In this document: positions 15,991 through 60,766 of the stretch, in pieces | Position numbering within the stretch: the stretch's first letter is position 1 | Layout: the number at the start of each line of letters is the position of its first letter | NCBI GenBank assembly: GCA_028867115.1 | Contig: JAGWGY010000001.1 | Location: forward strand, 8,380-72,379 | Direction: 5' to 3' | Length of the DNA stretch: 64,000 nucleotides | Source: Candidatus Micrarchaeota archaeon | GTDB lineage: Archaea > Micrarchaeota > Micrarchaeia > Micrarchaeales > CABMGC01 | The notes under the pieces: model-generated | What the model saw: only the letters and a program-made list of their open reading frames with translations | Database searches by the model: none | What the model was told of the DNA's origin: nothing | Translations under genes and position numbers: made by a program

Positions 15991-16581
15991 ATGGGCTCTT
16001 TCACCATCAGTATAAGGGACTACAGGCCGCTTGAGGATGCGCTTCGAAGCGGGAAGATTATGAAGCTCGATGCACAGTGCACCCACAACAGCAACGTGAT
16101 AAGGGAGATACTAAGATATGCCCCAAGAGTGCTGCCGCAATTCGGCTCCCTCTCCGATGGCGAAGTCCGCCAGATCGCCGACAGTGTGGCATACCTGATG
16201 AGAACCGACATAATTAAGGCTGGGGCATTCGCATTCGGCCCGATGCCATTCCAAGGCAATCCAAAAAGGAGCAAGGTGTCAGGAACGGTGCATATCAGGG
16301 CGGAGGTAGAGGCGCTCTCGCCGGATTTTGAGATTCCTTACGAGAACAACCCCCGTGCGAACATGGCAGGGGAGCTTTTCCGGTGCTATGTTGCAACGCA
16401 GACCTGGATGAGCCTAACAGAGCGCCTGGATCCAAAGCACCGTTCGCTTGCACCCAGCTTCAAGCTCGCAGACCTCACCGCGCACCTGATAGAAACGGAT
16501 GACCTTGTTGACTATGTTTACACGGCCGAGGAGATAGCGCAATATAGGAAGGCCCTGTCAGGAGAGCTGCGCGATGTGTAG
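15991..16581 (+). CDS. hypothetical protein
   Basis: 196-aa ORF with host-like composition; no motif recognised. Confidence 0.4.
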   Translation: MGSFTISIRDYRPLEDALRSGKIMKLDAQCTHNSNVIREILRYAPRVLPQFGSLSDGEVRQIADSVAYLMRTDIIKAGAFAFGPMPFQGNPKRSKVSGTVHIRAEVEALSPDFEIPYENNPRANMAGELFRCYVATQTWMSLTERLDPKHRSLAPSFKLADLTAHLIETDDLVDYVYTAEEIAQYRKALSGELRDV

Positions 16582-26522: not shown

Positions 26523-28148
26523 TCACTTCAATCCTTGGATTGCCACGGCATATGCGCTCCAGGCATCACTCCCACCAGTGGTGGGTTCTACGGATGATGC
26601 GCTATATTTGCAGGTGCCGGTAAGCCCGGGACAGTACCATATTACGGTCTTTGGTATGTTTGCGCTAACTTGCTTTGCTGAAACGATATTATACGAAACA
26701 TAAAGTATGTTTCCCGTAGTAACTGTTCCTGTTATCTTTGAATACCCTGAGGGGAAGGTCATCTTATCGGTGTAGTGGGATGGGGATGTCACTGCTATCA
26801 GGATGTCGTTTGCATGGTTTGTGTTGTAATATGCGTAGGCGTTGAAGGAGTGTGCGCTTGCGGACATCGAGAGGGTATTTGGGATTAGGGAATTAAGATC
26901 AAAGGGGGTCACGGTGTTTTCCCCAGACCAGGTCGATACTGATACCTGGTAGTAGATGAGCCCGCTCAGCGGCCCGTATGTGACAATAATGTTGTCGCTT
27001 GTAAGCTTGTTCGGCACTATCGCGTAATAGACTCCAGGGGGATATACGCTACTGCTGTACTGTGTAAATGATAGAAGACCCTGAGAGTCGGTAACTGATT
27101 CCAATGGCTCCCCTGTATATTGCATCATGACAAGGACAAGTTCCTGCGAATATGCAGTAGTAATGCCGGTGAATTTCACGACGTTTGTTGAGGGGTTTGT
27201 CGGAGGAATGCAGCATGCGAGGCCAGAGTCCGCATACTGGTCCAGTGCAAGTGGCGCTGTTGTTGAGGTTGTGGAGGTTGAGGTGCTTGTTGTAGATGAA
27301 GTGGTGGAGGTTGAGGTGGAAGTAGTTGATGTTGTGGTTGTTGAGGTTGAAGTGGAAGTGGTAGTTGAAGTTGTTGTTGTAGAATAGAATGTCGCAATGA
27401 GATTACCCGGGGATATGGTGTTCATTACGGTGTTTTGTGATGTTGTAGATATGACGCTAACACCACCCTGGGTGCTCCAGCTGGAGAAGAAGTACGAGCT
27501 CGGTGGAAGTGCATAGATCGTGTAAGGGCTCTGGTAGAGAAGGATTATCTGCGTATTCGAGGGGTATGCCACCCCATCCACAACAATCTGACCAGGAACA
27601 GGGTTTGTCTGCAGATTTACCTTAAGTATCGGGTTTGCAACTTGAGGAGAGATGCCCATTGAAGCAAACCCTGTTGTATTTATTGTGTTTGCGGAGGATA
27701 TTGGAAATACGCAACTGGGTTTCTGGCATACCTGATAGTTGAGAAGGAATTTTGGGCTTATCTGCGTCCCTGGAGAAGCTATTGATTTTGAGATTGTAAC
27801 ATTGCAAGTTACGACGGCGCCCTTGACCGCATTGTAGGGAAGGCAGATGCCATTGTAAGTCTGCCCGGAGAAGGTCGGATTCACCACTATCCCGTTTATA
27901 TTAGGGAAGCTTATCTGGGTGCCAAGGTTGTTTATGAATATAACGATGAACCTTGAAGATGCGGAGTTTGACATGAATACGGACGTTACGCATGGGAAAC
28001 TAGGCGAGATGTAGCAGCTTGAAGGGGTAAACCCTGATGGATTGCGGACGGTGACAACAGCGAGTATGAAGGCCAAAAAGACTGCGATTGCAAGGAAGGC
28101 CCAGGAGTAGGTGAGCAGGAACTCTATAGACGACTGGAGTTTACCCAT
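26523..28148 (-). CDS. large secreted protein with class III (type IV pilin-like, QxSxE) signal peptide and Thr/Ser linker, paralog A
   Basis: 541 aa; N-terminus MGKL-QSSIEFLLTYSWAFLAIAVFLAF; about 40-residue T/S run; many N-x-S/T sequons. Confidence 0.7.
   Translation of the reverse strand: MGKLQSSIEFLLTYSWAFLAIAVFLAFILAVVTVRNPSGFTPSSCYISPSFPCVTSVFMSNSASSRFIVIFINNLGTQISFPNINGIVVNPTFSGQTYNGICLPYNAVKGAVVTCNVTISKSIASPGTQISPKFLLNYQVCQKPSCVFPISSANTINTTGFASMGISPQVANPILKVNLQTNPVPGQIVVDGVAYPSNTQIILLYQSPYTIYALPPSSYFFSSWSTQGGVSVISTTSQNTVMNTISPGNLIATFYSTTTTSTTTSTSTSTTTTSTTSTSTSTTSSTTSTSTSTTSTTAPLALDQYADSGLACCIPPTNPSTNVVKFTGITTAYSQELVLVMMQYTGEPLESVTDSQGLLSFTQYSSSVYPPGVYYAIVPNKLTSDNIIVTYGPLSGLIYYQVSVSTWSGENTVTPFDLNSLIPNTLSMSASAHSFNAYAYYNTNHANDILIAVTSPSHYTDKMTFPSGYSKITGTVTTGNILYVSYNIVSAKQVSANIPKTVIWYCPGLTGTCKYSASSVEPTTGGSDAWSAYAVAIQGLK
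27258..27381 (-). repeat. low-complexity poly-Thr/Ser coding repeat (linker of paralog A)
   Basis: Plus strand reads GTTGAGGTTGTGGAGGTTGAGGTG...; translates on minus strand as STTTTSTTTSTSTSTTTTSTTSTSTSTTSSTTSTSTSTTSTT. Confidence 0.85.
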
Positions 28149-28253
28149 CCAAACACTTGTTTTTGCTATAGTCTAACTATAAACCTTTTTATGCCTTACA
28201 ACTGCAACTGGGGGGCAAATATAGTGGGAACCGTAGGCGGCCATGAACAGAGA

Positions 28254-29888
28254 CTATGGAAAACCTTGGATTGCAACTGCAAAATCAACCCACCCGTCGC
28301 TACCCCCTGCTGTTGGCTCTTGTGATGTTGGTACGTATTTGCAGGTCTTGTCCTTGTAGCTAGGGCAGTAGAACACAAGGGTCTTTGGGGTGTTTGCGCT
28401 TGCTTGGATTGCACTGACAACATTATATGAGACATATAGTATGTTGCCTGTTGAGACGCTGCCTGTTATCTTGGTGTATCCGCTTGGAAACTTGAAGTTG
28501 TCCCATAGGTGGCTGGGAGTTATAGCGGATATGAGAATGTCATTGGCATTGCTAGTTGTGTAGTATGCAAACGCATTAAAGGAACGTGATGTTGCGGCCA
28601 TACTCATTGTGTTTGGTATCTTTGAGTTTGTGTCGAATGGAGTCACGGTATTCTCGCCAGACCAGAGCGAGAGCGATACCTGGTCATCTATGAGCCCTGA
28701 GAGCGGACCGTATGTTACAGATACCTGGTCGTTTGTAAGAGTTCCTGGGACTATGGCGTAATATACTGTCGGATCAACAGATGTGCCATACTGTGAGAAC
28801 GTGAGCTGGCCCTGAGAGTCTGTGACGGACTCTATGGGCTCCCCTGCCTGGTCTGACATGACCAGCACCAGCTCGTCGCTGTAAGTGGTTGTAATCCCTG
28901 TGAAAGTGACCACGTTTGTTGACGGGTTGGTTGGCGGGCTGCAGCACGCAAGCCCTGAATCCCCATACTTGTCAAGCCCAAGTGGCGCTGTGGTTGTGGA
29001 GGTTGAGGAAGTCGTGGAGGAGGTTGTTGACGTGCTTGTAGTGGAAGTTGTCGAAGTTGAAGTTAAGGAGGTTGTGGTGGAGGAGGTTGATGTGGAAGTA
29101 ATGGTGGATGTCGTAGTCGTGGAGTAGAATACTGCAATGATGTTCCCAGGGGATATTGCGTTCACAATCGCGTTCTGGGTTGTTGCAGGTGATACGCTGA
29201 CGCCGCCTGTCGTCGCCCAGCTGGAGAAGAAGTATGAGCTTGGAGGGAGAGCATACACTGTGTAGGGATACCCGTACAGGAGGTGGACCAACACGTTTGA
29301 GGGGTATACTACGCTGTTAAGCACTATCTCCCCTCCGACCGGCAGGGTCTGCAGTCCCGCTAGTACGATCGCGTTGGGCACCATCGGGGATACTTCCATC
29401 GTGGAAAAGCCCGACGTGTAGAGAAGGTTTTGAGGTACAATCGGGAAGTCGCACCCGTCGCTATGGCACAACTCGTAGTTTAGCGTGAATTTCGGACTTA
29501 TCTGCGCCCCCACAGATGCGAGTTGCTTTGGCGCAGTGACGTTGCAGGTTACAACAGAGCCTATAGGCGCATTGTAGGGCAGGCAGACCCCGTTATAAAT
29601 CAGGCCCGAGAACGTGGGGTTCATCGTTATGCCGTTCGATTCGGGGAAGCTTATCGCCCTTCCCAGATTGTTTTTGAAGATTAGGATGAAAGCGGATGCT
29701 GCAGTGTTTGTCATGAATACCGAAGTTCTGCACAAAAGCCTTGTGTTTATGTAGCAGCTTCCTGGAGTCAGGCTTGCAGGATTTCTCACCGTTACCACGG
29801 CGAGTAGGAATGCGAGAAATACGGCAATCGCTAGAAAGGCCCAGGAGTAGGTGAGCAGGAACTCTATAGACGACTGGAGCTTACGCAT
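28254..29888 (-). CDS. large secreted protein with class III signal peptide and Thr/Ser linker, paralog B
   Basis: 544 aa; MRKL-QSSIEFLLTYSWAFLAIAVFLAF; collinear with paralog A; 44-nt identical stretch over the signal peptide (28096-28139 = 29836-29879). Confidence 0.7.
   Translation of the reverse strand: MRKLQSSIEFLLTYSWAFLAIAVFLAFLLAVVTVRNPASLTPGSCYINTRLLCRTSVFMTNTAASAFILIFKNNLGRAISFPESNGITMNPTFSGLIYNGVCLPYNAPIGSVVTCNVTAPKQLASVGAQISPKFTLNYELCHSDGCDFPIVPQNLLYTSGFSTMEVSPMVPNAIVLAGLQTLPVGGEIVLNSVVYPSNVLVHLLYGYPYTVYALPPSSYFFSSWATTGGVSVSPATTQNAIVNAISPGNIIAVFYSTTTTSTITSTSTSSTTTSLTSTSTTSTTSTSTTSSTTSSTSTTTAPLGLDKYGDSGLACCSPPTNPSTNVVTFTGITTTYSDELVLVMSDQAGEPIESVTDSQGQLTFSQYGTSVDPTVYYAIVPGTLTNDQVSVTYGPLSGLIDDQVSLSLWSGENTVTPFDTNSKIPNTMSMAATSRSFNAFAYYTTSNANDILISAITPSHLWDNFKFPSGYTKITGSVSTGNILYVSYNVVSAIQASANTPKTLVFYCPSYKDKTCKYVPTSQEPTAGGSDGWVDFAVAIQGFP
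28989..29123 (-). repeat. low-complexity poly-Thr/Ser coding repeat (linker of paralog B)
   Basis: Translates as STTTTSTITSTSTSSTTTSLTSTSTTSTTSTSTTSSTTSSTSTTT. Confidence 0.85.
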
Positions 29889-29999
29889 TGATAGCCCTAC
29901 ATATTTAATCCTTTTATTACTTTATCAACACCAGACAAATTAGTAATTGCCCCTATCTGCATATGGCCAGGTATGGGCGTGGTTTACCTGAGTGAATTC

Positions 30000-30806
30000 A
30001 TGATAGGGATTATTTATTCCGCAGATGACCCAGCCTCTGCAAACGCCGCAGGGCAATTGAAGGAGACTCACGATTTTAGTGAGTCAAGAATTTCTGGAAG
30101 AACGTGCTGGAAAAACGGGGATATTGTCCTCTGGGAAGCGGACTCAAGACTTATCGATGCCAAATCCGTTGACACGATGGGGTTTGAGGTAGCATACTTT
30201 CTTAGCAAGCACAAGAGTGCAAACGGGGTCGGCGCATTTACTACGCACCCTCTTGGGAACTGGACAGCAGAGGCTGCGATAGGAGGGACACCAAGAGAGC
30301 TCTCTATAGCCGCGCCTGCAGAGATGCTCTGCGTTCTCGCTGCAATCGCGCGCATAGATGCGGTTGGGATTGAGAGGACATATGAGGCAACCCATCACGG
30401 TCCGCTTCTCAATACCCCCTCACTCTTTGTTGAGCTTGGAGGAAATGACGCTGCAATCGGCAACGTCCAACTAGCACACAAGCTTGCGGATGCGGTTTTT
30501 TCGGCGCTTTCTGGAAAACAGGATCTTCAGGATAAAGTTGTGATTGGAATCGGGGGAACGCACTACCCTGTAAAGTTTACCAAGCTCGCGCTTGAGAAGG
30601 GTTATGCGTTTGCGCATATAATGCCAAAACACGCCATACTCAATCATGATGGGAGCGACAATCTAGGGATGCTTTCGCAGGCAGTTGAGCGATCAAAAGC
30701 GCCACCTGAAGCTGCGGTGATAGATTGGAAAAGTATAAATGCGGAGACAAGGAATAAGGTGCTAAAGGAGCTATCCGCAATTGGTATTGACTATGAGAGG
30801 GTTTGA
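30000..30806 (+). CDS. dtdA: D-aminoacyl-tRNA deacylase, archaeal DTD2 type
   Basis: FTTHPLGNW, YEATHHGP, IGIGGTHY, VIDWKS; start at MIGIIYS (ORF track starts 29973). Confidence 0.8.
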   Translation: MIGIIYSADDPASANAAGQLKETHDFSESRISGRTCWKNGDIVLWEADSRLIDAKSVDTMGFEVAYFLSKHKSANGVGAFTTHPLGNWTAEAAIGGTPRELSIAAPAEMLCVLAAIARIDAVGIERTYEATHHGPLLNTPSLFVELGGNDAAIGNVQLAHKLADAVFSALSGKQDLQDKVVIGIGGTHYPVKFTKLALEKGYAFAHIMPKHAILNHDGSDNLGMLSQAVERSKAPPEAAVIDWKSINAETRNKVLKELSAIGIDYERV

Positions 30807-32793
30807 GCGCGGTATTTATACGGTGTGCATTCTCTCCCTTCTGCTTATGGGATCGGCCAACGCACAGTACTGGTACCAGTTCGGAGCAAGGGGAGGAATA
30901 ACCTCAACAGGCAACTCTGGGGCGTCTGTATCAATACAGACGATAACCCCCCAGACAAGCGACTTCGGATCCATAGGGTACTGGGTGGGCGAGGACCTGA
31001 GCAACGGCGCATTCCTCCAGGCAGGATACGTCATTGAGAACCAGTCCGGCTCGTACCCAAGCTTCTGCGACATGTCAGGGTGCTCCAACTACCAGCAGCT
31101 TAATGCAGGGGATGCGCAATGGTTCTACGAATATTTCCCTGCGGGCTTTTCCGGAGGATTCCTTGGGAGGATAGGGCCTGCAGATTCGGCAGGCAGGAAC
31201 GGCACTTTCCATTCATACTCATTCTACTTTACAAACGGCCAGTGGGACTTTGCAGTTGATGGCAACGTGGTTGGAAATACGACATTGGGCACTTCTACTT
31301 CAGGCTCAAACGCGCCAGTGGCGTTCGGTGAGATAGCAAACACAACAGGGGTTGCAGCGACACTGCCGCATGTGATTTTTAATAATCTGTCTGCATACAA
31401 GAACGGCGCCTGGTTCCCTGCGCAATCTGGCACAGCGTACATAGGCTACGGCGTGGGCAGCCTCACTAACCTGAAAAATCCGTACGGGGTTGAGGAGATA
31501 ACAAATAGGGTAAATTATTTTGCGGTAGGCTCAGGCCTCCCGCAGCCAAGGAACAACTCCCAGCTATGGAGCCTTGGTTACGGCCTTAGTGTTGTCTCGG
31601 CATACGGCAATCTCTCCTCAAGCGGCGCTTACGTCGCATACTCGAACGTGAAGATATCTGCGCCGCAGAGCGTACAGCTATCTGGCAACACGAGGGTGGT
31701 ATTCGCGGGATGGAAGGGGACTGGTATAGGCTCTTATAGCGGTCCGCTAGACAGCGTCACGCTCGCTATGGACAGCAACATAACAGAGACAGCGCAGTGG
31801 CAGACCCAGTATCTGCTGAACGTCTCCTCGCCATATGGACAAACGTACGGAAGCGGGTGGTATGCCTTGGGCAGCTCGGCAGGATACGGGATAAGAAATG
31901 GCACCGTGCCCACTAGCGCTACCTCCCGAGAGGTTTTCGAGGATTGGAGCAACGGGAATGCTGCTCTTGGCGGGACGGCCACAATGAACGGCCCCACAAA
32001 CATCAACGCGACATGGACGCAGCAGTTCCTAGTAACCCTGCAGTCGCAGTACGGCAACGCGACAGGAGGGGGATGGTACAATTATGGAGGGGAGGCAAAG
32101 ATAGGGATAAACATAGGCAACATAACAGTCTCGCCAAGCGAGAGGATAGCCTTCTATCAGTGGAGCAACGGGAATTTGAACCGCAGTTTCTTCCTTAACG
32201 TAACAGGGCCGCAGTTCTTAACAGCGCAGTTCAGGAAAATAGGGCTTGCGACCTTCAACCCCCAGAACGCGAATGGGGAAAGCCTGGGCAACGTGACTCT
32301 TTATATGGGCAATTCAACTGTAGGGCAGAGCGAGTTCCTCTTCGAGAACCAATCCTACACGATAAGCTACGCATATTATAAGGGGGTCAGGATGATTGTC
32401 AGCGACACGTTCACTTTCTCATCTTCCGGCCCTGTTGATGTGAAGCTGCCGGTGTATAACGTGCAGATAGCGACAAGGGACCTGTTCGGCCAGCCTATAC
32501 AGTCTGCCGTAAGCGTCAGGTTCTCAAACGACAGTGTGCTCAGGGCAACAACTGGATCAAGCGGGATGATAAACTTCACCAACGTACCGTACGGCTACGT
32601 TAACGTGACTGCAAGCAACCTGGGCATAACACAGCAGGCGGTCGCAAGAAACGGAGGCACCACAAGCCTGCTCTTTGTCTCGAATTTGGACATGGCGATC
32701 TTTGCAGGGGTGATAGCTGCGATTGCGGGGGCGTTCTTCGTTGCAAGGCACTTTGCGCGCAGGCCAGGCCAAAGCAGCGCGCAGCAGGCATAA
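30793..32793 (+). CDS. cell-surface glycoprotein: signal peptide, jelly-roll N-domain, repeated beta-sandwich modules, C-terminal TM anchor
   Basis: N-terminus MRGFERGIYTVCILSLLLMGSANAQ; about 25 N-x-S/T sequons; repeats F-x-x-W-x-G...Q-[YF]-L-[LV]-x-[VL]-x-S-x-YG...G-x-GWY; C-terminus IFAGVIAAIAGAFFVARHFARR. Confidence 0.65.
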   Translation: MRGFERGIYTVCILSLLLMGSANAQYWYQFGARGGITSTGNSGASVSIQTITPQTSDFGSIGYWVGEDLSNGAFLQAGYVIENQSGSYPSFCDMSGCSNYQQLNAGDAQWFYEYFPAGFSGGFLGRIGPADSAGRNGTFHSYSFYFTNGQWDFAVDGNVVGNTTLGTSTSGSNAPVAFGEIANTTGVAATLPHVIFNNLSAYKNGAWFPAQSGTAYIGYGVGSLTNLKNPYGVEEITNRVNYFAVGSGLPQPRNNSQLWSLGYGLSVVSAYGNLSSSGAYVAYSNVKISAPQSVQLSGNTRVVFAGWKGTGIGSYSGPLDSVTLAMDSNITETAQWQTQYLLNVSSPYGQTYGSGWYALGSSAGYGIRNGTVPTSATSREVFEDWSNGNAALGGTATMNGPTNINATWTQQFLVTLQSQYGNATGGGWYNYGGEAKIGINIGNITVSPSERIAFYQWSNGNLNRSFFLNVTGPQFLTAQFRKIGLATFNPQNANGESLGNVTLYMGNSTVGQSEFLFENQSYTISYAYYKGVRMIVSDTFTFSSSGPVDVKLPVYNVQIATRDLFGQPIQSAVSVRFSNDSVLRATTGSSGMINFTNVPYGYVNVTASNLGITQQAVARNGGTTSLLFVSNLDMAIFAGVIAAIAGAFFVARHFARRPGQSSAQQA

Positions 32794-54318: not shown

Positions 54319-54528
54319 ATGGGCAGAAAATACACGATAATCATAACCAAGGGAGAAGTCGCATATGTCGCTTATTGTGAGGAGCTCGGAATAGCGAGCC
54401 AGGGAAAGAGCGTAAAGGAGGCAAGGAAGAACATAAAGGAGGCAATAGAACTATACACTGAAGAGGCAAAAGACTCGAAGCTCGCTAAGTCAGCTTTGCC
54501 CATAGTGACAACGATAAGCGTGGGATGA
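54319..54528 (+). CDS. hicB: HicB-like antitoxin (UPF0150 fold)
   Basis: 69 aa; YTIIITKGEVAYVAYCEELGIASQGKSVKEARKNIKEAIELY. Confidence 0.65.
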   Translation: MGRKYTIIITKGEVAYVAYCEELGIASQGKSVKEARKNIKEAIELYTEEAKDSKLAKSALPIVTTISVG

Positions 54529-54532
54529 TGAG

Positions 54533-54760
54533 ATGGGCAAACTTCCCATCGTTTCGGCGCTAGATGTTGTAAAGGTGCTCAGAAAGAACGGCTTTAGCAT
54601 ATCAAGGCAGAGGGGAAGCCACATAATACTTATAAAATTTGTTGATGACAAGAAACGGATAGTTGTCGTCCCTAACCACAGGCAGATTGACCCTGGTACA
54701 CTGCTTTCCATAATAGCCCAATCTGGCATGCTAAAAGACGAATTCCTTGATTCTTTGTGA
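54533..54760 (+). CDS. hicA: HicA-family mRNA-interferase toxin
   Basis: 75 aa; VVKVLRKNGFSISRQRGSHIIL...VVVPNHRQIDPGTLLSIIAQSGM. Confidence 0.75.
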   Translation: MGKLPIVSALDVVKVLRKNGFSISRQRGSHIILIKFVDDKKRIVVVPNHRQIDPGTLLSIIAQSGMLKDEFLDSL

Positions 54761-54865: not shown

Positions 54866-55087
54866 TTAATTACAGTTTGAGCGAGTTGGTGAGGAGAATT
54901 TTGGATAGCTATAATTGAACAGTACAACATTGTGAAAATTACATTCTAGTTCTTGTGTTGTCAAAAACACCGCGTAAGCATATGCCGTTTGAATACCATA
55001 AATGTATTTGGTCATAATATAATTTGAGTAGATTCCAGATATTACGAGCACCAATGATACTGCCAAAAATATCCCGTAAGCAGACAT
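54866..55087 (-). CDS. small membrane protein, last gene of pilus operon
   Basis: 73 aa; N-terminal hydrophobic helix; abuts the upstream gene. Confidence 0.4.
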   Translation of the reverse strand: MSAYGIFLAVSLVLVISGIYSNYIMTKYIYGIQTAYAYAVFLTTQELECNFHNVVLFNYSYPKFSSPTRSNCN

Positions 55088-55471
55088 TCAATCACCAACT
55101 TCAATGCAGAGCGTGCTATTCCTTTTGCCATAATAAATACATGTTTGTACCAAAGGTGAGTTGACATAGCCTAAGCTAATATTAGGTGCCTTTGCTGCAA
55201 TATTTACTTTGTATAATTTGTTATATATCAGAAATAAGTTGCTTAAACATGTAGAATTACTTGATGATAGGTTCTCAACACATAACTTCGTAGAGCCATT
55301 AAAATCTAGCTGATTGATAAGATCATATATGGCAAAGTTGCTTATCAATGCACTCTTCTGTGTAAAGAGGGTTAAAGTTGCAGAGTTCATGGCATTGGTA
55401 GTATAAGTAATAGCAAAAATTGCCAGCAAGATAGAGGTAACTGATTCGGCCACTGCAAATTGCGCCTTCAT
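55088..55471 (-). CDS. pilin-like protein (degenerate class III signal)
   Basis: 127 aa; MKA-QFAVAESVTSILLAIFAITY. Confidence 0.5.
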   Translation of the reverse strand: MKAQFAVAESVTSILLAIFAITYTTNAMNSATLTLFTQKSALISNFAIYDLINQLDFNGSTKLCVENLSSSNSTCLSNLFLIYNKLYKVNIAAKAPNISLGYVNSPLVQTCIYYGKRNSTLCIEVGD

Positions 55472-56737
55472 TTAAGCACCTTTTACGTTAATATAGGATC
55501 CAAGGTATTGAAGAGTCATATTTTCTATGCTAAGCCCATTAAAAGATGCATTTATGATGTATGAGAAAGGATATTGTGAGTAGCAAGTATAATTCTCTAT
55601 GTTGAAGGTACAGCCTTTGCCTAGAATTCCTGAGCTATTGAGCAGCTTATTTACTGTATTAATGTAGCTAAATCCCATGGATTCCAAAGCAGATGCGATA
55701 TCTGGCGAGACTTCTGATCCATTGTACGCACTAAGTTGGGAATATAGGGAGTTCTTATCGGATAGGTATGCCTGATAATTTGAGGAATTTACGGGTGAGA
55801 TCCCTTTGGGACCATCGAGGAAGTTTTGGTTTATTTGTTGTGCAATACCGCTCGCATTCTCTACTGACGCATTTCCTACATCCAGATTGTTTAATGTAAG
55901 CCTGCTGGATTTATTGTTCGAGATATTAGAGCGGATAGTAAAATTTTCTGAGGCTAATTTCAAAGTGAAGTTATAATGCAACGAGGCGCCTGCTTGCCCA
56001 GCGGACATATCCTGGTAGCCACTATCTACAGGGATAAAGCAGTAGGTTTCGGTATAGTAGCTACTTGTTTGGTAACAAACGTCTGAGAATACTGATACCG
56101 ACCACTCTCCACCAGAACCGCACTGTTGTCGTGTAGGCCCCCACCCATTTGCATAGGTACAGTGGGAGAATACCTGCATTTGAATTATGTTGCCGGCATC
56201 TAATAGTGGATATACGTATGACTCGTTTCTATTTAGTATAGTCGCTGTTAGCTGATTAGTCTGCAGTTGTATACCTTGTTTAGTTCCATAGGTGGAATAT
56301 GTAGTGTTTATTGTTCTTCTAATGTTATTGCACGTGGTCGTCGAATTTACGCTTATTTGGTTATACCCCATATTAAGAGGAGTAAAATAGATATCAAAAA
56401 CCTCAATGCCGCTTAAGGTGGAATTTAGCGAATCTTGTGAAAAAAGTACAGATTTAGAGATAAAATTTAGTCTTATTGACCCATTACACCCATATGCAAC
56501 GAGCCGCATTATGTTTGGGTTATCAAGAACTGCGCTCTGTGGTACAAAAACCCTTACCTCCATATTCTGCGGGTAAATAATTTGTGGACCGTATGTAGAT
56601 GCGTTAAAAGAACTAAAATTATTGAACTTAGATTGGTTAGAATGGATCGTTTGGCTGTAAGATGAGACCATTATAACAATCAGTACACTTATCGTGCTTG
56701 CAGCAAGTAGGAACTCTACACTAGCCTGCATTTTCAT
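55472..56737 (-). CDS. large pilin-like protein (class III signal plus about 390-aa N/S/T-rich domain)
   Basis: 421 aa; MKM-QASVEFLLAASTISVLIVIMV. Confidence 0.6.
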   Translation of the reverse strand: MKMQASVEFLLAASTISVLIVIMVSSYSQTIHSNQSKFNNFSSFNASTYGPQIIYPQNMEVRVFVPQSAVLDNPNIMRLVAYGCNGSIRLNFISKSVLFSQDSLNSTLSGIEVFDIYFTPLNMGYNQISVNSTTTCNNIRRTINTTYSTYGTKQGIQLQTNQLTATILNRNESYVYPLLDAGNIIQMQVFSHCTYANGWGPTRQQCGSGGEWSVSVFSDVCYQTSSYYTETYCFIPVDSGYQDMSAGQAGASLHYNFTLKLASENFTIRSNISNNKSSRLTLNNLDVGNASVENASGIAQQINQNFLDGPKGISPVNSSNYQAYLSDKNSLYSQLSAYNGSEVSPDIASALESMGFSYINTVNKLLNSSGILGKGCTFNIENYTCYSQYPFSYIINASFNGLSIENMTLQYLGSYINVKGA

Positions 56738-57101
56738 GACTTAACACCAGGATTATGCTCTTTCCATTTAGAGTGACTATTCGGCAAACCCCCATAGTTT
56801 CACAGCCAGCTGGAGAAGAGTTGGAAAGCTGTAGGATTTGCGATTGTATCAGGTTTTCTGAGGAGTAATTACTAATGAAAGAAATTAATCCAGAATTATT
56901 TTCTGGATAACTATCGATAACAGAAGCGATTATCTGCGAGATAGTGTAGAGCTTGAGCTGCATCACACTGTTTGTGGAAAGAGAGGATAACGAGAGCGTT
57001 TGCATATGCCAGGTGTAAAGTAATAGAAGCACTGCTGTCGAGACTATTGGCAAAGAGATAGTAAGATCTAGTGAAATGAGTGCACCAATAATTTTTGACA
57101 T
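56721..57101 (-). CDS. minor pilin-like protein
   Basis: 126 aa; MSKIIGA-LISLDLTISLPIVSTAVLLLL. Confidence 0.45.
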   Translation of the reverse strand: MSKIIGALISLDLTISLPIVSTAVLLLLYTWHMQTLSLSSLSTNSVMQLKLYTISQIIASVIDSYPENNSGLISFISNYSSENLIQSQILQLSNSSPAGCETMGVCRIVTLNGKSIILVLSHENAG

Positions 57102-57310
57102 GAAATCAACCTTAAATCAACTACACAACTGGCACACGAGGCGGCCAATTCTTCGGTATATGTAGCAGCGCTACAGGACGCATTCTTTTCAATCCCAATA
57201 ACTTTAGTTGCTCCAAAGTGGAGTTTTGAGAGCAGCAACAGCGAGGATAATGCAAATAACATAACTATTGACATACCTACAATAACCTCTAAACTAATCT
57301 GAGCTCGCAT
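57068..57310 (-). CDS. type IV pilin-like protein (QxSxE)
   Basis: 80 aa; MRA-QISLEVIVGMSIVMLFALSSLLLL. Confidence 0.6.
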   Translation of the reverse strand: MRAQISLEVIVGMSIVMLFALSSLLLLSKLHFGATKVIGIEKNASCSAATYTEELAASCASCVVDLRLISCQKLLVHSFH

Positions 57311-57693
57311 TACGACACCCTGTTTAGTATGTAATATTCTCCCTTGTAGGAAATGCTTAGGACCGATCCCCCTCCATCAGGACAAAATACCCCCTTAGGG
57401 ATAGAAATGCCATCTGCAATGCTTAGATTTCCATAAATTGTGGAAAGGACGCCAGATTTCACGTATGCACTGCACATCCCGCTTGGGAGATATGCCGAGA
57501 ACTCCTGGTAGGCTACTCCTGTGAGTGCTGCAGAGTTTAATTTAGAGACCATGGATGAGACCTGGTATTCACTGAGCAGGTAGGTGACGTGCACCATCCC
57601 AACACGTAGCGTGTTTGCAATGAACAGCAGTGATACGCCCGAGAGGGAGATGTAAGCAAGTACCTCAAGTGAGAGCTGCGCCCTCATCATCAC
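57310..57693 (-). CDS. type IV pilin-like protein (QxSxE)
   Basis: 127 aa; MMMRA-QLSLEVLAYISLSGVSLLFI. Confidence 0.6.
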   Translation of the reverse strand: MMMRAQLSLEVLAYISLSGVSLLFIANTLRVGMVHVTYLLSEYQVSSMVSKLNSAALTGVAYQEFSAYLPSGMCSAYVKSGVLSTIYGNLSIADGISIPKGVFCPDGGGSVLSISYKGEYYILNRVS

Positions 57694-57944
57694 TACACCA
57701 CATTAGATGAAAGCGAGGATAGCTCATGGGATATTGCACCGGATATGCTCATGTTGCTCCCATTTACCATTATATTTGAAGTCGCGGCACCTTTCAGCTT
57801 CACCACCATGGCCAAGGCTATCGCTATTACAAGACTAGCCGCTGCAAGCATCATTATGTACTCCAATGATCCTTGCCCCTTCTTTGACCTCGCCACTGCG
57901 AGCAACGCTTTTGCTTCCAAAAGGAATCTTATTCTATTTTCCAT
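57693..57944 (-). CDS. small type IV pilin (candidate major pilin)
   Basis: 83 aa from internal ATG 57944: MENRIRFLLEAKALLAVARSKKG-QGSLEYIMMLAAASLVIAIALAMVV; the longer ORF-track form overlaps the upstream gene. Confidence 0.6.
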   Translation of the reverse strand: MENRIRFLLEAKALLAVARSKKGQGSLEYIMMLAAASLVIAIALAMVVKLKGAATSNIMVNGSNMSISGAISHELSSLSSNVV

Positions 57945-57952
57945 TTTCCCAC

Positions 57953-58606
57953 CTATATTACATAAGAAGAAAAGCCAAAGGATGCAGATTGCAATGCATA
58001 TGCTATGCCCGCTAAGGGGGCAACATATTGCAGAATCTCGGAAATTCGTAGCCAAGGCTTGATTAGGATTCTGTTTATGCAAAGGACAATTATGATGTAG
58101 AGCATGCTTATCGATCTTATACCCCATGTCGTCACGGCTTTGCCAGTTCCAATCAATGAGCTGGAAGCTATACTTGATGCAATTCCGCTGAATAATGGGA
58201 AGAAAAGGATTACACCTATCACTGACAGTGTCTGCATCCCACTTACTTTGGCGTTCATCATGTTCCTAAGTTCGCTCTTCTGCAATTGTAAGGAGTGGAA
58301 ATCTTCCAGATTTTTCTCTATTTCAACCCCATTAGATGCACCTAAATGAAGTATTTTCAGAAGATTGTACATTTCCGCCCCGAATTTTTGTGGTATTTCT
58401 GCGCCAAAGTCGGACATCCTCCAACGTTTTGCGAGAACACATAGTGTTTCGTATTTAACATCATTAGAGACTGCCGCCTCGAGCGCCTTTATTGCAGAAT
58501 GCGAGGCCCTATAGTTATAGAGTACGCTTGAGCTGAGGGAGATTATTTCGGACAGGCTATCGCTATTTGCATTGATTAATACGGATGATCTAGACCACAT
58601 TTTCAA
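57953..58606 (-). CDS. pilus platform membrane protein, half 2 (single T2SSF/TadC-like domain)
   Basis: 217 aa; helical cytoplasmic N-part then 3 TM segments; follows half 1 with a 17-nt overlap. Confidence 0.5.
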   Translation of the reverse strand: MKMWSRSSVLINANSDSLSEIISLSSSVLYNYRASHSAIKALEAAVSNDVKYETLCVLAKRWRMSDFGAEIPQKFGAEMYNLLKILHLGASNGVEIEKNLEDFHSLQLQKSELRNMMNAKVSGMQTLSVIGVILFFPLFSGIASSIASSSLIGTGKAVTTWGIRSISMLYIIIVLCINRILIKPWLRISEILQYVAPLAGIAYALQSASFGFSSYVI

Positions 58607-59276
58607 TTAATCTCCTCGATAACGCAGTAACGCTTGTAGCATAGACAAAAGGCAGTACAATTAACAGCCCAATTGACAACCCGATAAGGCTAATGCTCGT
58701 TTGGCTGATAACAGTCGAACCAATATACCCAAAAATGAGAAATGAGGGCAATATTGCCGATAAAAACATGCTAATTGTAGAATAGCGCTGAATGGAATCT
58801 GATGCTGTTGATAGCCGCGCCTTTCGTTTTTGTAAAGAGGAGACAACAAATCTGCTTACTTTATCATATAAATCTCCAGAAGTGGGGATTGTGTTTTCAC
58901 CCCCAATAACCTCTATGAATTCTGCGTTTATTGCATTAAGGAGCGTATCCCCCAGGCGGATCCTGTTCTTTATCCTAATTAGGTTTGGTGGGCTGCTTGC
59001 CCCGAAAGACCTTTCTACCATCTCTTTTGAGGTTGCATTGCGATATTTGTAATAGATGATAGAGGATAGGAACTGCAGGACTTGGCCTTTAAGTATTGCT
59101 TTTTGGTAGAGGTCTGCAAGCAATCCCATGGCCCTTAACAGGAATAGCAGGAGAAATGCGCAGATTAGGAGGATATCGGTTTCAAGAAAGAGGCTTGTTA
59201 TCCCATTAATTACGACTATCAAAAAACAGACTAGGAGCGAAAGTGCAAGTGCGCTAATTAATTGATGATATTTCAT
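58590..59276 (-). CDS. pilus platform membrane protein, half 1 (single T2SSF/TadB-like domain)
   Basis: 228 aa; TM-helical-TM topology; ATGA overlap with the ATPase gene. Confidence 0.5.
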   Translation of the reverse strand: MKYHQLISALALSLLVCFLIVVINGITSLFLETDILLICAFLLLFLLRAMGLLADLYQKAILKGQVLQFLSSIIYYKYRNATSKEMVERSFGASSPPNLIRIKNRIRLGDTLLNAINAEFIEVIGGENTIPTSGDLYDKVSRFVVSSLQKRKARLSTASDSIQRYSTISMFLSAILPSFLIFGYIGSTVISQTSISLIGLSIGLLIVLPFVYATSVTALSRRLIENVV

Positions 59277-60766
59277 TTTTGTAACCCATATTGGTGTATA
59301 TATTCTACCAGTTCGATGGTAGCTGTAGTACCGCCAGACAGCTTCTTTAGGAAATCTGCGCGCTTTCGGAGCTCCTTGAGCGCCTGTGATTTAGAAACTG
59401 ACTTTTTCTTTGAATAGACTTCAATAATTTTTGATTCTGAGAGTGCTTTTTGATCGACTGCGGCATTTAAGGCCACCTCATTTGTGCTTAGCATATCATC
59501 ACCGATTTTTATGCCCCCTCCGAGAATTTCTGCCCTGCTTAGCCATTTGTACTCTGTAATCCCTGTTACCAATCGTGATCCGAACCCATTATGGGTCATC
59601 TGTACGGATATATCTAGAGAACTTAATGACTCCTGCTGCACGCTCATCGGATTAACCATGAGTCGCTTTATTACAGATATTCCCGCCTCGCTGCTGTGGA
59701 TAGTTGCTAGGAAAGGAACGCCAAAGTTTGCGCCAGTGAAGAGTTCCCGCGTCTCTTCGCCACGCAGCTCCCCGACCACCAGAAGGTCTGGGCGCATCCG
59801 AAGCGAGTTTATTACCTGGGACCTAACGTCCACACCTTTCCCGTGCCTGAACCCATTCAAAGCGACTACGCTCTGCACATTGGGATAGAACTTGAGCTCG
59901 TTTACGTCCTCCTCTATGGTTATAACCCTGCTGTGTGCTGGCGCTAATGCAATAAGAGAGCTGAGTAATGTCGTTTTGCCGCTTGCTGGCGCGCCGGAAA
60001 TAAGAATGCTTGCGCCACTCTCTATTGCAATCCACAAGTAAGCTGCAGAATCATAATTGATAGTAGAGGTTTGCAGCAAACGAACGATGTTGGACTCTTT
60101 CCTCCCTCCCATCCTTATTGTGGCACATGCCCCGTTTACAGCATAAGGCCTAAGCTGTGCGTGGATCCTAGCATCTGCTACCTGGACATCTATTACAGGA
60201 GTTGACTCGTTTATTTCAGCATCGCAATCGTAGATTAGCCTATTAATGGCACTGCGGAATTCTGTCTCTCCGCAAAATTGCAGATTTGTGACGCACCTGC
60301 CATATTTTGAGTGGTAGATTGAGATCGCAGAAGTTGGGGAGTTGATTTCTATTTCCTCTATATTGACCTTATCCTCCATCAGTATCCCGATAGGCCCATA
60401 GCCGATGGTGTCGTGTGCAACAATCTCTGCGAGTTTTCTGGCATTTTGAAAAGGCATGGCAGAGGAGAGTTCTGCGACTGCAATCTGCTTTGCACGCTCA
60501 AAATCTTCAGGAGTTATAGTACTTTTTGAAGAGAGTTCGTCCACTACTCTCCCTTTTGCAAAACCGGCTGCTTTAATCTCTGATTGTGCAAACTGCGCCT
60601 GGTCATATCCCACGAGATACTGTGGAATTTTTCCAGTGCGGCAAATACAGCGTTTAATCGGAAGGTCTACTACCTCTTCTATAGGGCCATGTTCTGTGGA
60701 ATAAATCGAGAATCCAAGTTTAGAATAAGGTTTGGGCTTCTGCGGTTCTTTTCTGAACGAAAACAT
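59273..60766 (-). CDS. type IV filament assembly ATPase (GspE/VirB11/ArlI-PilB superfamily)
   Basis: 497 aa; Walker A ISGAPASGKTT, Walker B/Asp box PDLLVVGELRGEE, His box ATIHS. Confidence 0.85.
   Translation of the reverse strand: MFSFRKEPQKPKPYSKLGFSIYSTEHGPIEEVVDLPIKRCICRTGKIPQYLVGYDQAQFAQSEIKAAGFAKGRVVDELSSKSTITPEDFERAKQIAVAELSSAMPFQNARKLAEIVAHDTIGYGPIGILMEDKVNIEEIEINSPTSAISIYHSKYGRCVTNLQFCGETEFRSAINRLIYDCDAEINESTPVIDVQVADARIHAQLRPYAVNGACATIRMGGRKESNIVRLLQTSTINYDSAAYLWIAIESGASILISGAPASGKTTLLSSLIALAPAHSRVITIEEDVNELKFYPNVQSVVALNGFRHGKGVDVRSQVINSLRMRPDLLVVGELRGEETRELFTGANFGVPFLATIHSSEAGISVIKRLMVNPMSVQQESLSSLDISVQMTHNGFGSRLVTGITEYKWLSRAEILGGGIKIGDDMLSTNEVALNAAVDQKALSESKIIEVYSKKKSVSKSQALKELRKRADFLKKLSGGTTATIELVEYIHQYGLQK

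Follow-up and report, generated by a model that had tools for sequence, protein, structure and literature searches.

Tandem genes for candidate modular type IV pilin-like adhesins in a Candidatus Micrarchaeota genome

Two tandem genes in a Candidatus Micrarchaeota MAG (source assigned from protein matches) are predicted to encode paralogous archaeal modular type IV pilin-like adhesins, a reading that we hold with moderate confidence and that carries with it the prediction of leader cleavage, filament incorporation, glycosylation and binding. The general kind of protein is known; the family itself is undescribed. The genes lie within the 64,000-nt stretch of DNA analyzed here (the window), and both encode a M-[GR]-K-L-QSSIEFLLTYSWAF leader and a Thr/Ser linker of 42-45 residues, and share a 44-nt tract of identical DNA. 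Because a pilin-type anchor is combined with a putatively sugar-bearing stalk and with an outer domain that is exchangeable and has relatives among the tail proteins of viruses, we propose them as candidate host-attachment proteins.

Organization of the two proteins

The order of parts is the same in both proteins: leader (residues 1-4), helix (residues 5-34), two beta domains (residues 35-255), linker, and a C-terminal domain of 244 residues (Table 1). A sequence-only reading of this DNA had described the tandem paralogues, the leader, the Thr/Ser linker and the 44-nt tract, and the ORFs and coordinates bear all of these out; its visual estimate of 55-60% protein identity was too low, the computed value for the whole proteins being 66%. 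The two copies now differ in charge, with isoelectric points of 6.9 and 4.6. The A/T-rich boxes upstream of the two genes resemble each other.

Table 1. Features of the two genes and of the type IV pilus locus in the window (positions count from the first nucleotide of the window).
Feature	Position	Strand	Basis
Paralogue A (P0001, 541 aa), modular pilin-like surface protein	26523..28148	-	ORF; 100% identical to hypothetical protein KGH52_00260, Candidatus Micrarchaeota archaeon
A: leader MGKL, residues 1-4; predicted cleavage before Q5	28137..28148	-	Family motif; cleavage predicted
A: hydrophobic alpha-1 helix, residues 5-34, QSSIEFLLTYSWAFLAIAVFLAFILAVVTV	28047..28136	-	AF2 helix 2-34; Q5 and E9 nearly invariant
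A: domain D1, residues 35-170, six-Cys beta-sandwich	27639..28046	-	Alignment A1; AF2 pLDDT ~85-90
A: domain D2, residues 171-255, InlB B-repeat (Flg_new_2)-like beta domain	27384..27638	-	AF2 pLDDT 88-97
A: linker, residues 256-297, 42 residues, all Ser/Thr	27258..27383	-	Sequence
A: C-terminal cargo domain, residues 298-541, beta-rich	26526..27257	-	hhalign profile comparisons
A: candidate archaeal BRE/TATA element, A/T-rich box ATAAAAAGGTTTATA, 30-44 nt upstream of start	28178..28192	-	Sequence reading only; promoter role putative
Paralogue B (P0002, 544 aa)	28254..29888	-	ORF; 66% identity to A; KGH52_00265
B: leader MRKL and alpha-1 helix, residues 1-34	29787..29888	-	ORF, alignment
B: domains D1 and D2, residues 35-255	29124..29786	-	Alignment
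B: linker, residues 256-300, Ser/Thr 43/45	28989..29123	-	Sequence
B: C-terminal cargo domain, residues 301-544	28257..28988	-	69% identity to C-domain of A
B: candidate promoter, A/T-rich box ATAAAAGGATTAAATA, 14-29 nt upstream of start	29902..29917	-	Sequence reading; promoter role putative
44-nt tract, probable gene-conversion tract	28096..28139 (A) = 29836..29879 (B)	-	Exact DNA match
Type IV pilus locus	54866..60766	-	PF00437 on ATPase, PF04021 on small pilin, motifs
Pilus-locus ATPase	59273-60766	-	PF00437
Pilus-locus split platform	58590-59276 and 57953-58606	-	
Pilus-locus pilins or pilin-like genes	57693-57944, 57310-57693, 57068-57310, 55472-56737, 55088-55471	-	PF04021 on small pilin 57693-57944; motifs

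Both N-termini (M-[GR]-K-L-QSSIEFLLTYSWAFLAIAVFLAF) have the hallmarks of an archaeal class III (prepilin-type) signal, namely Lys at -2, Gln at +1, Glu at +5 and a hydrophobic helix of ~30 residues. Across 138 family members the -2 residue (K3 in both proteins) is Lys or Arg in 124 (90%), and Gln (+1) and Glu (+5) are fixed; this set was chosen by the motif itself, and alignment A1 independently has Q5 and E9 nearly invariant. The residue at -1 is Leu (L4) in both proteins rather than the small Gly, Ala or Ser, and it varies in the family (Q 28, L 24, A 22, G 18, S 18, and others; ~42% canonical Gly/Ala/Ser). For recognition by archaeal prepilin peptidases, positions -2, -1 and +1 are reported to matter most (PMC3387779). 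The Pfam model PF04021 (Class_IIIsignal, DUF361; QXSXEXXXL; gathering threshold 23.7 bits) matches neither N-terminus even at E<=10, and NCBIfam likewise gave no match for either, whereas PF04021 scores 26.7 bits on the small pilin of the pilus locus. Aligned with QXSXEXXXL, QSSIEFLLT agrees at the Q, S and E positions, with Thr at +9 and Leu at +7 and +8. The earlier assignment to a class III type is supported by these hallmarks, with three caveats: the Leu at -1, the missing PF04021 match and the lack of a prepilin peptidase gene among the window ORFs scanned. Its further remark that Q-x-S-x-E recurs in the pilins of the pilus locus is also correct (55088-57944, 25-28 kb away), and the leader is common to pilin-sized proteins (133-183 aa) in related genomes. 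PF04021 pilins such as those processed by EppA in Methanococcus maripaludis share with the window proteins Q-x-S-x-E, Gln at +1, a basic -2 residue and the hydrophobic helix, but they have Gly at -1 and are six to seven times smaller.

The carrier module (residues 1-255) begins with the class III-like leader and helix and continues with a six-Cys beta-sandwich and then a domain that resembles InlB B-repeats. In the AF2 model (mean pLDDT 85), residues 2-34 form a helix and two beta domains come after it, which is the lollipop layout of type IV pilins. Six Cys (45, 53, 102, 115, 141, 146) are invariant in alignment A1, and D1 also has a conserved sequon (N116); the single ~230-aa domain of the sequence-only reading is in fact two, with all six conserved Cys confined to the first. 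PF18998 (InlB B-repeat/Flg_new_2) is found in 37 of 76 extended family members; on the window proteins it is below the Pfam threshold with no match at E<=1, and profile positions 187-250 match proteins with long B-repeat arrays (20-39 repeats). Foldseek with the N-terminal module returned only generic tandem Ig-like matches (TM ~0.2), with no archaeal pilin among them.

The linker had been described as pure Thr/Ser, which is accurate for paralogue A and not for paralogue B. In paralogue A, the linker DNA is made up of imperfect tandem repeats. N-x-S/T sequons, which had been listed as a feature of the proteins, are instead depleted (two and one observed against 9.1 and 7.9 expected; P ~0.003).

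The carrier family and its exchangeable domains

By profile comparison, the carrier module defines a large unannotated family: among 1.84e9 representatives, the profile of residues 1-255 matches 5147 proteins at E<=1e-3 and 235 at E<=1e-30, and many of the matches listed are 245-280 aa long and span the whole module. Stand-alone carrier proteins of <300 aa that end where the linker would start make up 52 of the 138 members, and other members join the carrier through a Thr/Ser linker to Kelch, LamG, Big_1, propeller or other binding domains (added domains in the 76 extended members: Flg_new_2, Big_1, DUF2341, Kelch, LamG_3, NHL, fn3 and propellers). One syntenic orthologue (L004) has a Kelch-type cargo in place of the C-terminal domain of the window proteins, and the orthologue beside the ferredoxin gene in L019 has the same type of cargo as the window. 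Positional orthologues carry different C-terminal domains, and the C-terminal domain of the window proteins is one such exchangeable cargo.

The C-terminal domain has no Pfam or PHROG annotation, and its AF2 model is poor and unreliable (pLDDT 53). The window C-domain aligns with the C-domains of other family members (hhalign probability 97%, E 7e-11), and the profile of this domain family aligns with stand-alone proteins of viral tail gene modules (95%, E 1.7e-8); compared directly with the viral group the window pair reaches only 23%, the viral link running through intermediates. The IMG/VR contigs that encode the stand-alone relatives also have genes for terminase, portal and tail proteins, and the domain family occurs in stand-alone viral and secreted proteins. 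The family member P0015 has a C-domain 48-54% identical to the stand-alone relatives on tailed-virus contigs. By these profile comparisons, the C-terminal domain belongs, as a remote member, to a domain family that also occurs in tail gene modules of tailed viruses.

This architecture resembles the modular pilins PilB and PilC of Streptococcus sanguinis (Raynaud et al. 2021, PMC8179133), in which a class III pilin module bears a linker and a grafted binding module. The same study describes one carrier with many cargo architectures, including lectin/ConA-like and other binding folds, a size of ~50 kDa, incorporation into pili and a proposed role in adhesion. As in modular pilins, the N-terminal module of the window family also exists without an extra module, and the extra module is an independent domain that is found outside pilins too. 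The window proteins differ in being archaeal (DPANN), with a K/R (-2), Q (+1) leader in place of the IPR012902 N-methylation motif of bacterial pilins, in having a carrier of ~250 aa (helix plus two beta domains) instead of a small pilin, and in their long Ser/Thr linker; pilus incorporation is here only predicted. The large LamG and adhesin-like proteins linked to type IV pilus loci in Micrarchaeota and other archaea (Golyshina et al. 2017, PMC5498576; bioRxiv 10.64898/2026.04.22.720090) agree with the window proteins in phylum and in the rationale of host attachment. LamG, Kelch and propeller cargo also occur in the window family, one member of which adjoins a locus of this kind. The available portions of these two sources contain no description of a carrier family with helix, six Cys and B-repeat, of cargo swapping at Ser/Thr linkers, or of cargo related to viral tails.

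Age of the duplication and the 44-nt tract

In every domain the paralogues have a dN/dS of 0.09-0.12, with saturated dS (>2), which indicates that they diverged long ago and that purifying selection acts on them. The diversification that had been suggested for the exposed domains is thus contradicted, no domain having any sign of diversifying selection in the paralogue comparison. No exact DNA match between the two genes is longer than the 44-nt tract, and no other common block reaches 20 nt. The tract covers 14 consecutive codons without a synonymous change, whereas outside the tract the same codon is used at only 43% of identical-residue positions (chance P ~8e-6 at one position, ~0.003 corrected for all positions). 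Gene conversion and strong constraint on the leader had both been offered for this tract; because orthologues encode the same leader peptide with many synonymous differences, constraint at the DNA level is unlikely, and local gene conversion is the probable best explanation. An old tandem duplication would thus have produced the two copies, purifying selection would keep both, and a recent short gene-conversion event would have homogenized their 5' ends.

Display at the cell surface

Both genes are surrounded by housekeeping genes, with flanking synteny conserved across MAGs, and no viral genes are nearby. A surface glycoprotein-like gene (30781-32793) is a neighbor. The type IV pilus locus lies 25 kb away and, with its split platform, is laid out like archaeal system 1, which is reported in methanogens and DPANN; the locus may supply the assembly machinery for both proteins, a putative functional link. 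A homologue in MAG REEA61 adjoins a T2SSE-type ATPase gene and two platform genes, and a pilus ATPase is encoded within 7-8 kb of only one of ~25 related loci. Of the window ORFs that were scanned with Pfam, none was identified as a prepilin peptidase gene; Micrarchaeota are reported to have a single FlaK-like peptidase along with two systems for type IV pili (PMC5498576).

As modular pilin-like adhesins, the proteins would be inserted into the membrane by the N-terminal helix, the prepilin peptidase of the genome (presumably encoded outside the window) would remove M-[GR]-K-L to leave Gln as the new N-terminus, and the type IV pilus ATPase and platform would pull the helix out, making the protein a low-abundance subunit in a filament of smaller family members. 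The Ser/Thr stretch, probably O-glycosylated, would form an extended stalk of ~10-15 nm that holds the C-terminal domain off the filament and the S-layer, where it would bind a ligand, the most plausible one being a structure on the surface of the host cell that carries the episymbiont. The description in the sequence-only reading, pilus-displayed or membrane-anchored adhesins of unknown family, is a fair one because the proteins combine the signal hallmarks, pilin-sized relatives, an ATPase-adjacent homologue and binding-type cargo, and because a search of Pfam and NCBIfam for known S-layer or enzyme families gave no match.

The proteins could instead be anchored on the membrane and never enter a filament, the helix staying in the membrane, cleaved or not, while the carrier and the Ser/Thr stalk push the cargo through the S-layer, as for Sulfolobus bindosome substrates or stalked surface glycoproteins; we regard this as a somewhat less probable alternative. 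A subunit of ~57 kDa with a flexible linker of 42-45 residues would be bulky for the body of a filament, the genes lie among housekeeping genes outside any pilus operon, most related loci are without a nearby ATPase, and class III signals are documented on archaeal non-pilin surface proteins (PMC3387779). The same leader and helix on pilin-sized proteins, the homologue beside ATPase and platform genes, and the entry of ~50-kDa bacterial modular pilins into pili (PMC8179133) argue against anchoring alone. Bindosome substrates are likewise large non-pilin extracellular proteins with a prepilin-type signal that need a type IV pilus-like machinery (PMC3387779), whereas the window proteins have adhesin-like, exchangeable cargo; a bindosome-type class III solute-binding protein was considered and rejected, as neither a solute-binding domain (Pfam) nor an adjoining ABC transporter (neighboring genes) was found. 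Unlikely, in our view, is an uncleaved signal anchor of type II topology with a non-functional resemblance to prepilins: the Leu at a highly variable -1 position, the lack of Pfam and NCBIfam class III matches and the lack of a peptidase gene among the scanned window ORFs are consistent with it, but a plain anchor leaves unexplained both the basic -2 residue with fixed Gln and Glu ahead of the helix and the same Q-x-S-x-E spacing in the pilins of the pilus locus.

The stand-alone C-domain relatives on tailed-virus contigs, and the similarity of the P0015 C-domain to them, could also mean that the genes are virus-related, as remnants of an integrated virus or as host-encoded decoys or receptor mimics. 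This is very improbable given the conserved housekeeping flanks and synteny, the absence of viral genes nearby, a dN/dS of ~0.1 with saturated dS that points to long residence in the genome, and the distant position of the window C-domain within the domain family. It is slightly less probable still that they are S-layer subunits or secreted enzymes, which large, Ser/Thr-rich extracellular proteins beside a surface glycoprotein-like gene might suggest: besides the lack of family matches, the characterized Micrarchaeota S-layer protein (SLP_Mh of Ca. Micrarchaeum harzensis) has a mass of 101 kDa and belongs to PF05123, a Sec signal would have a shorter hydrophobic stretch than these proteins do, and N-glycosylation sequons are depleted, not enriched.

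How DPANN episymbionts recognize and grip their hosts is largely unexplained, and the carrier family, if its members are modular pilin-like adhesins, offers concrete, testable candidates: the conserved carrier can be searched for in any Micrarchaeota genome, and its cargo is exchangeable, differs between positional orthologues and in one type is shared with tail gene modules of tailed viruses. The family would extend the bacterial concept of the modular pilin to archaea, and its class III-like signal, in which the -1 position is relaxed, is relevant to how specific archaeal prepilin peptidases are and to predictors of the FlaFind kind. A bolder and rather doubtful proposal is that Micrarchaeota use one conserved pilin-type carrier as a display scaffold, that recombination at the Ser/Thr linkers swaps its outer domains, and that these domains are also traded with tailed viruses, the window C-domain being a viral-type receptor-binding module for the surface of the host archaeon. 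If this is true, episymbionts and viruses would draw on a common pool of host-recognition domains.

The paralogous pair and its leader

The two genes lie where the sequence-only reading had placed them (paralogues A and B; Table), and their products, which begin M-[GR]-K-L-QSSIEFLLTYSWAFLAIAVFLAF, are identical to KGH52_00260 and KGH52_00265, 'hypothetical proteins' of a Candidatus Micrarchaeota MAG. That reading held as an observation, and its interpretation is supported in part. Over their full length the proteins are 66% identical and 79% similar, above the 55-60% identity first estimated, and their Ser/Thr linker, described as pure, is so in paralogue A (42/42 residues) and nearly so in paralogue B (43/45). 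They differ in charge, with mature pI values of 6.9 (A) vs 4.6 (B) and C-terminal domain net charges of -5 vs -11. Upstream of each gene is one A/T-rich box, a putative promoter. Full-length searches of both paralogues against Pfam and NCBIfam gave no real matches, and an exact search of JGI metagenomes with 41 nt of the leader matched nothing.

Positions of the features discussed, in the window unless another contig is named
Feature	Position (strand)	Length	Annotation
Paralogue A gene	26523-28148(-)	541 aa	
Paralogue B gene	28254-29888(-)	544 aa	
Longest exact DNA match, A/B	28096-28139 and 29836-29879	44 nt	
C-terminal domain insertion, A/B (~500-527)	26523-26640 / 28257-28380	~23 residues	two Cys, C506 and C513 in paralogue A
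ORF in the slot after Trm5	15991-16581(+)	196 aa	no Pfam match
Surface protein	30781-32793(+)	670 aa	Sec-like signal; C-terminal transmembrane anchor; sole Pfam match a weak CarboxypepD_reg
HicB-like ORF	54319-54528(+)		weak DUF7387 match
HicA toxin gene	54533-54760(+)		PF07927, E 3e-18
Type IV pilus locus	54866-60766(-)		T2SSE ATPase, split platform, five pilin-like genes
Pilus-locus protein	55472-56737	421 aa	
LamG-like proteins (contig L002)	2048-6927(+)	738 and 890 aa	
Tandem pilin-sized genes (contig L007)	6343 and 8007	182 and 183 aa	identical leader DNA, KAQSAMEYLMTYGWAILII
Micrarchaeota contig L005	1-6913	6.9 kb	both ends inside family-gene 5' ends

Several features argue for a class III signal. 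Among 138 fetched family members (those carrying the leader motif), position -2 is K/R in 90%, with Q at +1, E at +5 and then a hydrophobic stretch of ~30 residues, which AF2 predicts as a helix (residues 2-34) leading into two beta domains (mean pLDDT 85). Related contigs encode pilin-sized proteins (133-183 aa) with the same leader, and the Q-x-S-x-E spacing is, as previously noted, also used by the pilins of the pilus locus (55-58 kb of the window), where the small pilin alone among the pilin-like genes reaches the Pfam Class_IIIsignal threshold. However, -1 is Leu in both paralogues, and the family has Q, L, A, G or S there in similar numbers, so that the residue is canonical in about 42% of members only; the key determinants for archaeal SPase III are positions -2, -1 and +1 (PMC3387779). 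Neither PF04021 nor NCBIfam models matched the N-termini of the paralogues. We therefore regard the N-terminus as a class III-like signal, relaxed at position -1, for which cleavage is predicted from sequence.

The sequence-only reading took the identity of the leader DNA as consistent with gene conversion or strong constraint, with diversification of the exposed domains. The 44-nt tract is indeed the longest exact match between the genes, which have no other common block of at least 20 nt, and it stands out from the background (P about 8e-6 uncorrected, about 0.003 corrected). Orthologues in other MAGs have the same leader peptide with many synonymous differences, and functional constraint at the nucleotide level is therefore unlikely and was rejected as the cause; the tract is best explained by gene conversion that was short and recent. 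For the pair as a whole, the Nei-Gojobori estimates (dN 0.26; dS 2.2, saturated) and a dN/dS that stays within 0.09-0.12 from domain to domain, the C-terminal one included, point to an old duplication with purifying selection on both copies. Positive or diversifying selection between the paralogues was thus rejected at pairwise resolution.

The tandem genes of L007 are another case of homogenised 5' ends in pilin paralogues. The two family-gene ends that bound L005 are inverted and have near-identical leaders; paralogous leader sequences appear to be points at which assemblies break.

The N-x-S/T motifs listed as a feature of the proteins proved to be depleted (2 and 1 sequons, where shuffling gives expectations of 9.1 and 7.9; P about 0.003), and richness in N-glycosylation was rejected on this basis. 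One conserved sequon, N116, immediately follows Cys115. This depletion contrasts with other proteins of the cell surface, the neighbouring 670-aa protein and the 421-aa pilus-locus protein, which are strongly enriched (21 sequons vs 9.9 expected, and 20 vs 9, respectively). By analogy with archaeal Thr-rich stalks, the Ser/Thr linker would probably be O-glycosylated.

The N-terminal module and its cargo

Homologues in Micrarchaeota have residues 1-255 in common with the paralogues and diverge after the linker; within the shared part, Q5 and E9 are nearly invariant and six Cys (45, 53, 102, 115, 141 and 146) are invariant. A profile of this N-module, searched against 1.84 billion cluster representatives, matched 5147 proteins at E<=1e-3 and 235 at E<=1e-30. 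Among the matches listed, many are 245-280 aa long and span the whole profile, and the N-module therefore also occurs by itself, as a stand-alone protein. A few others, of about 180-200 aa, match over the helix and first domain only. Some of the best matches are long arrays that align to positions 187-250 only, which points to the second domain (D2) being of the InlB B-repeat (Flg_new_2) type. The 138 leader-bearing members divide into 52 of <300 aa and 86 that are extended. In a Pfam scan of 76 extended members, Flg_new_2 was found in 37, together with Big_1, DUF2341, Kelch, Laminin_G_3, NHL, fn3 and several beta-propellers; these cargo domains are all of binding type, and no clear enzyme family dominates. 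Residues 1-255 are thus a conserved, autonomous module.

The AF2 model of the N-module is confident. Its Foldseek matches in the PDB were confined to generic proteins with tandem Ig-like folds, among them Gram-positive pilins and adhesins (TM about 0.2), and a PDB sequence search with the profile was empty; the modelled fold is therefore most aptly summarised as a helix and two successive beta-sandwich-type domains, without a specific relative. The family, designated unknown earlier, is uncharacterised; the papers we searched contained no description of it, although full-text searching cannot prove absence.

The C-terminal domain and its viral relatives

The 244-aa C-terminal domain (C-domain) had no sequence match in Pfam, NCBIfam, PHROG or, by profile, the PDB, and a homologue search with it as sole query returned nothing, the query itself included. 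The AF2 model is all-beta and poor (pLDDT 53), and Foldseek found nothing for it in the PDB or BFVD at E<=0.001; the weak BFVD matches of this low-confidence model include minor tail and tail fibre proteins.

The same type of domain was found again in six family members (P0018, P0005, P0015, P0161, P0157 and P0107), and the C-domains of the window pair, set against these and two non-pilin relatives, aligned over 170 columns at an hhalign probability of 97% (E 7e-11). A profile search recovered unannotated stand-alone proteins of 210-300 aa, which the family profile still matched after removal of its closest member (95%, E 1.7e-8). The stand-alone proteins, to which PHROGs assigned no family, adjoin a phage capsid gene, and also occur on IMG/VR viral contigs with terminase, portal, tail and tail-fibre PHROGs, inside the tail gene module. 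The C-domain of P0015, a family member, is 48-54% identical to these viral proteins. By sequence comparison, the window C-domain is a distant member of this domain family. Compared directly with the viral group, the window pair scores 23% only, and an HMM from its two C-domains alone found no further member; the link to viral proteins is therefore transitive.

Stand-alone relatives lie in tail gene modules of tailed-virus contigs (L009-L016); in L012 the C-domain type makes up the first third, from the N-terminus, of a 660-aa protein adjoining a tail-fibre PHROG. In another protein (P0186) it stands behind an ordinary Sec signal. The two-Cys insertion of the window pair, which no other member of the domain family has, may be a disulfide-bonded loop specific to the lineage.

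Genomic setting and proposed role

The window pair is surrounded by housekeeping genes (TldD, PmbA, 4Fe-4S ferredoxin, D-aminoacyl-tRNA deacylase, a DJ-1 family protein, ribosomal proteins and SRP54), 25-31 kb from the type IV pilus locus. In MAGs TC-S (L003) and REEA72 (L004) its slot is held by a single family gene, in the order SRP54 ... DJ-1, 670-aa surface protein, deacylase and then the divergently transcribed family gene, within which the L003 contig stops; in L004 it is followed by genes for ferredoxin and ribosomal proteins L10 and L1. As an instance of cargo swapping, the L004 protein (P0003) has Kelch-like repeats as its cargo, not the window C-domain type; the window cargo type is present in the family gene that adjoins ferredoxin in L019. 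The 670-aa protein beside the family gene in L003 and L004 is 54-58% identical to that of the window, and is a candidate surface glycoprotein partner. The slot after Trm5, filled in the window by a 196-aa ORF, holds a family member in L001, L018 (a stand-alone protein of 245 aa) and L019.

The pilus locus has a G+C content of 0.40-0.44 vs about 0.51, which suggests that it may have been horizontally acquired. The HicA toxin gene, preceded by the HicB-like ORF, lies at its edge. No prepilin peptidase gene was found among the window ORFs scanned. A family member next to a pilus ATPase and platform occurs in only 1 of about 25 loci: in REEA61 (L002) its immediate neighbours are a 517-aa T2SSE-type ATPase and two platform genes. 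Upstream of that locus are two large LamG-like proteins, the longer with a canonical K-K-G|L-F class III-like N-terminus. Micrarchaeota have been reported to possess one FlaK-like peptidase and two pilus systems to which LamG proteins are linked (PMC5498576), and the L002 arrangement matches this report.

Identity as a known S-layer or enzyme family was named beforehand as an outcome that would count against a pilin-type reading. The paralogues had no Pfam or NCBIfam match and are unlike the S-layer proteins characterised in Micrarchaeota, and an S-layer identity was rejected; nor are they solute-binding proteins of the bindosome type. The best-supported reading is that they are an archaeal counterpart of bacterial modular pilins (PMC8179133), from which they differ in their archaeal leader with a relaxed -1 position, their large, two-domain carrier, their long Ser/Thr linker and a pool of cargo domains shared in part with viral tail proteins. 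The least certain points of this reading are leader cleavage, assembly into a filament, and what fold and ligand the C-domain has. As an archaeal modular pilin, each protein would consist of a pilin-type carrier and a stalk that bears a grafted binding module. Displayed either along a filament or at the membrane, this module would serve in attachment, for which the episymbiont's host is the most plausible target.
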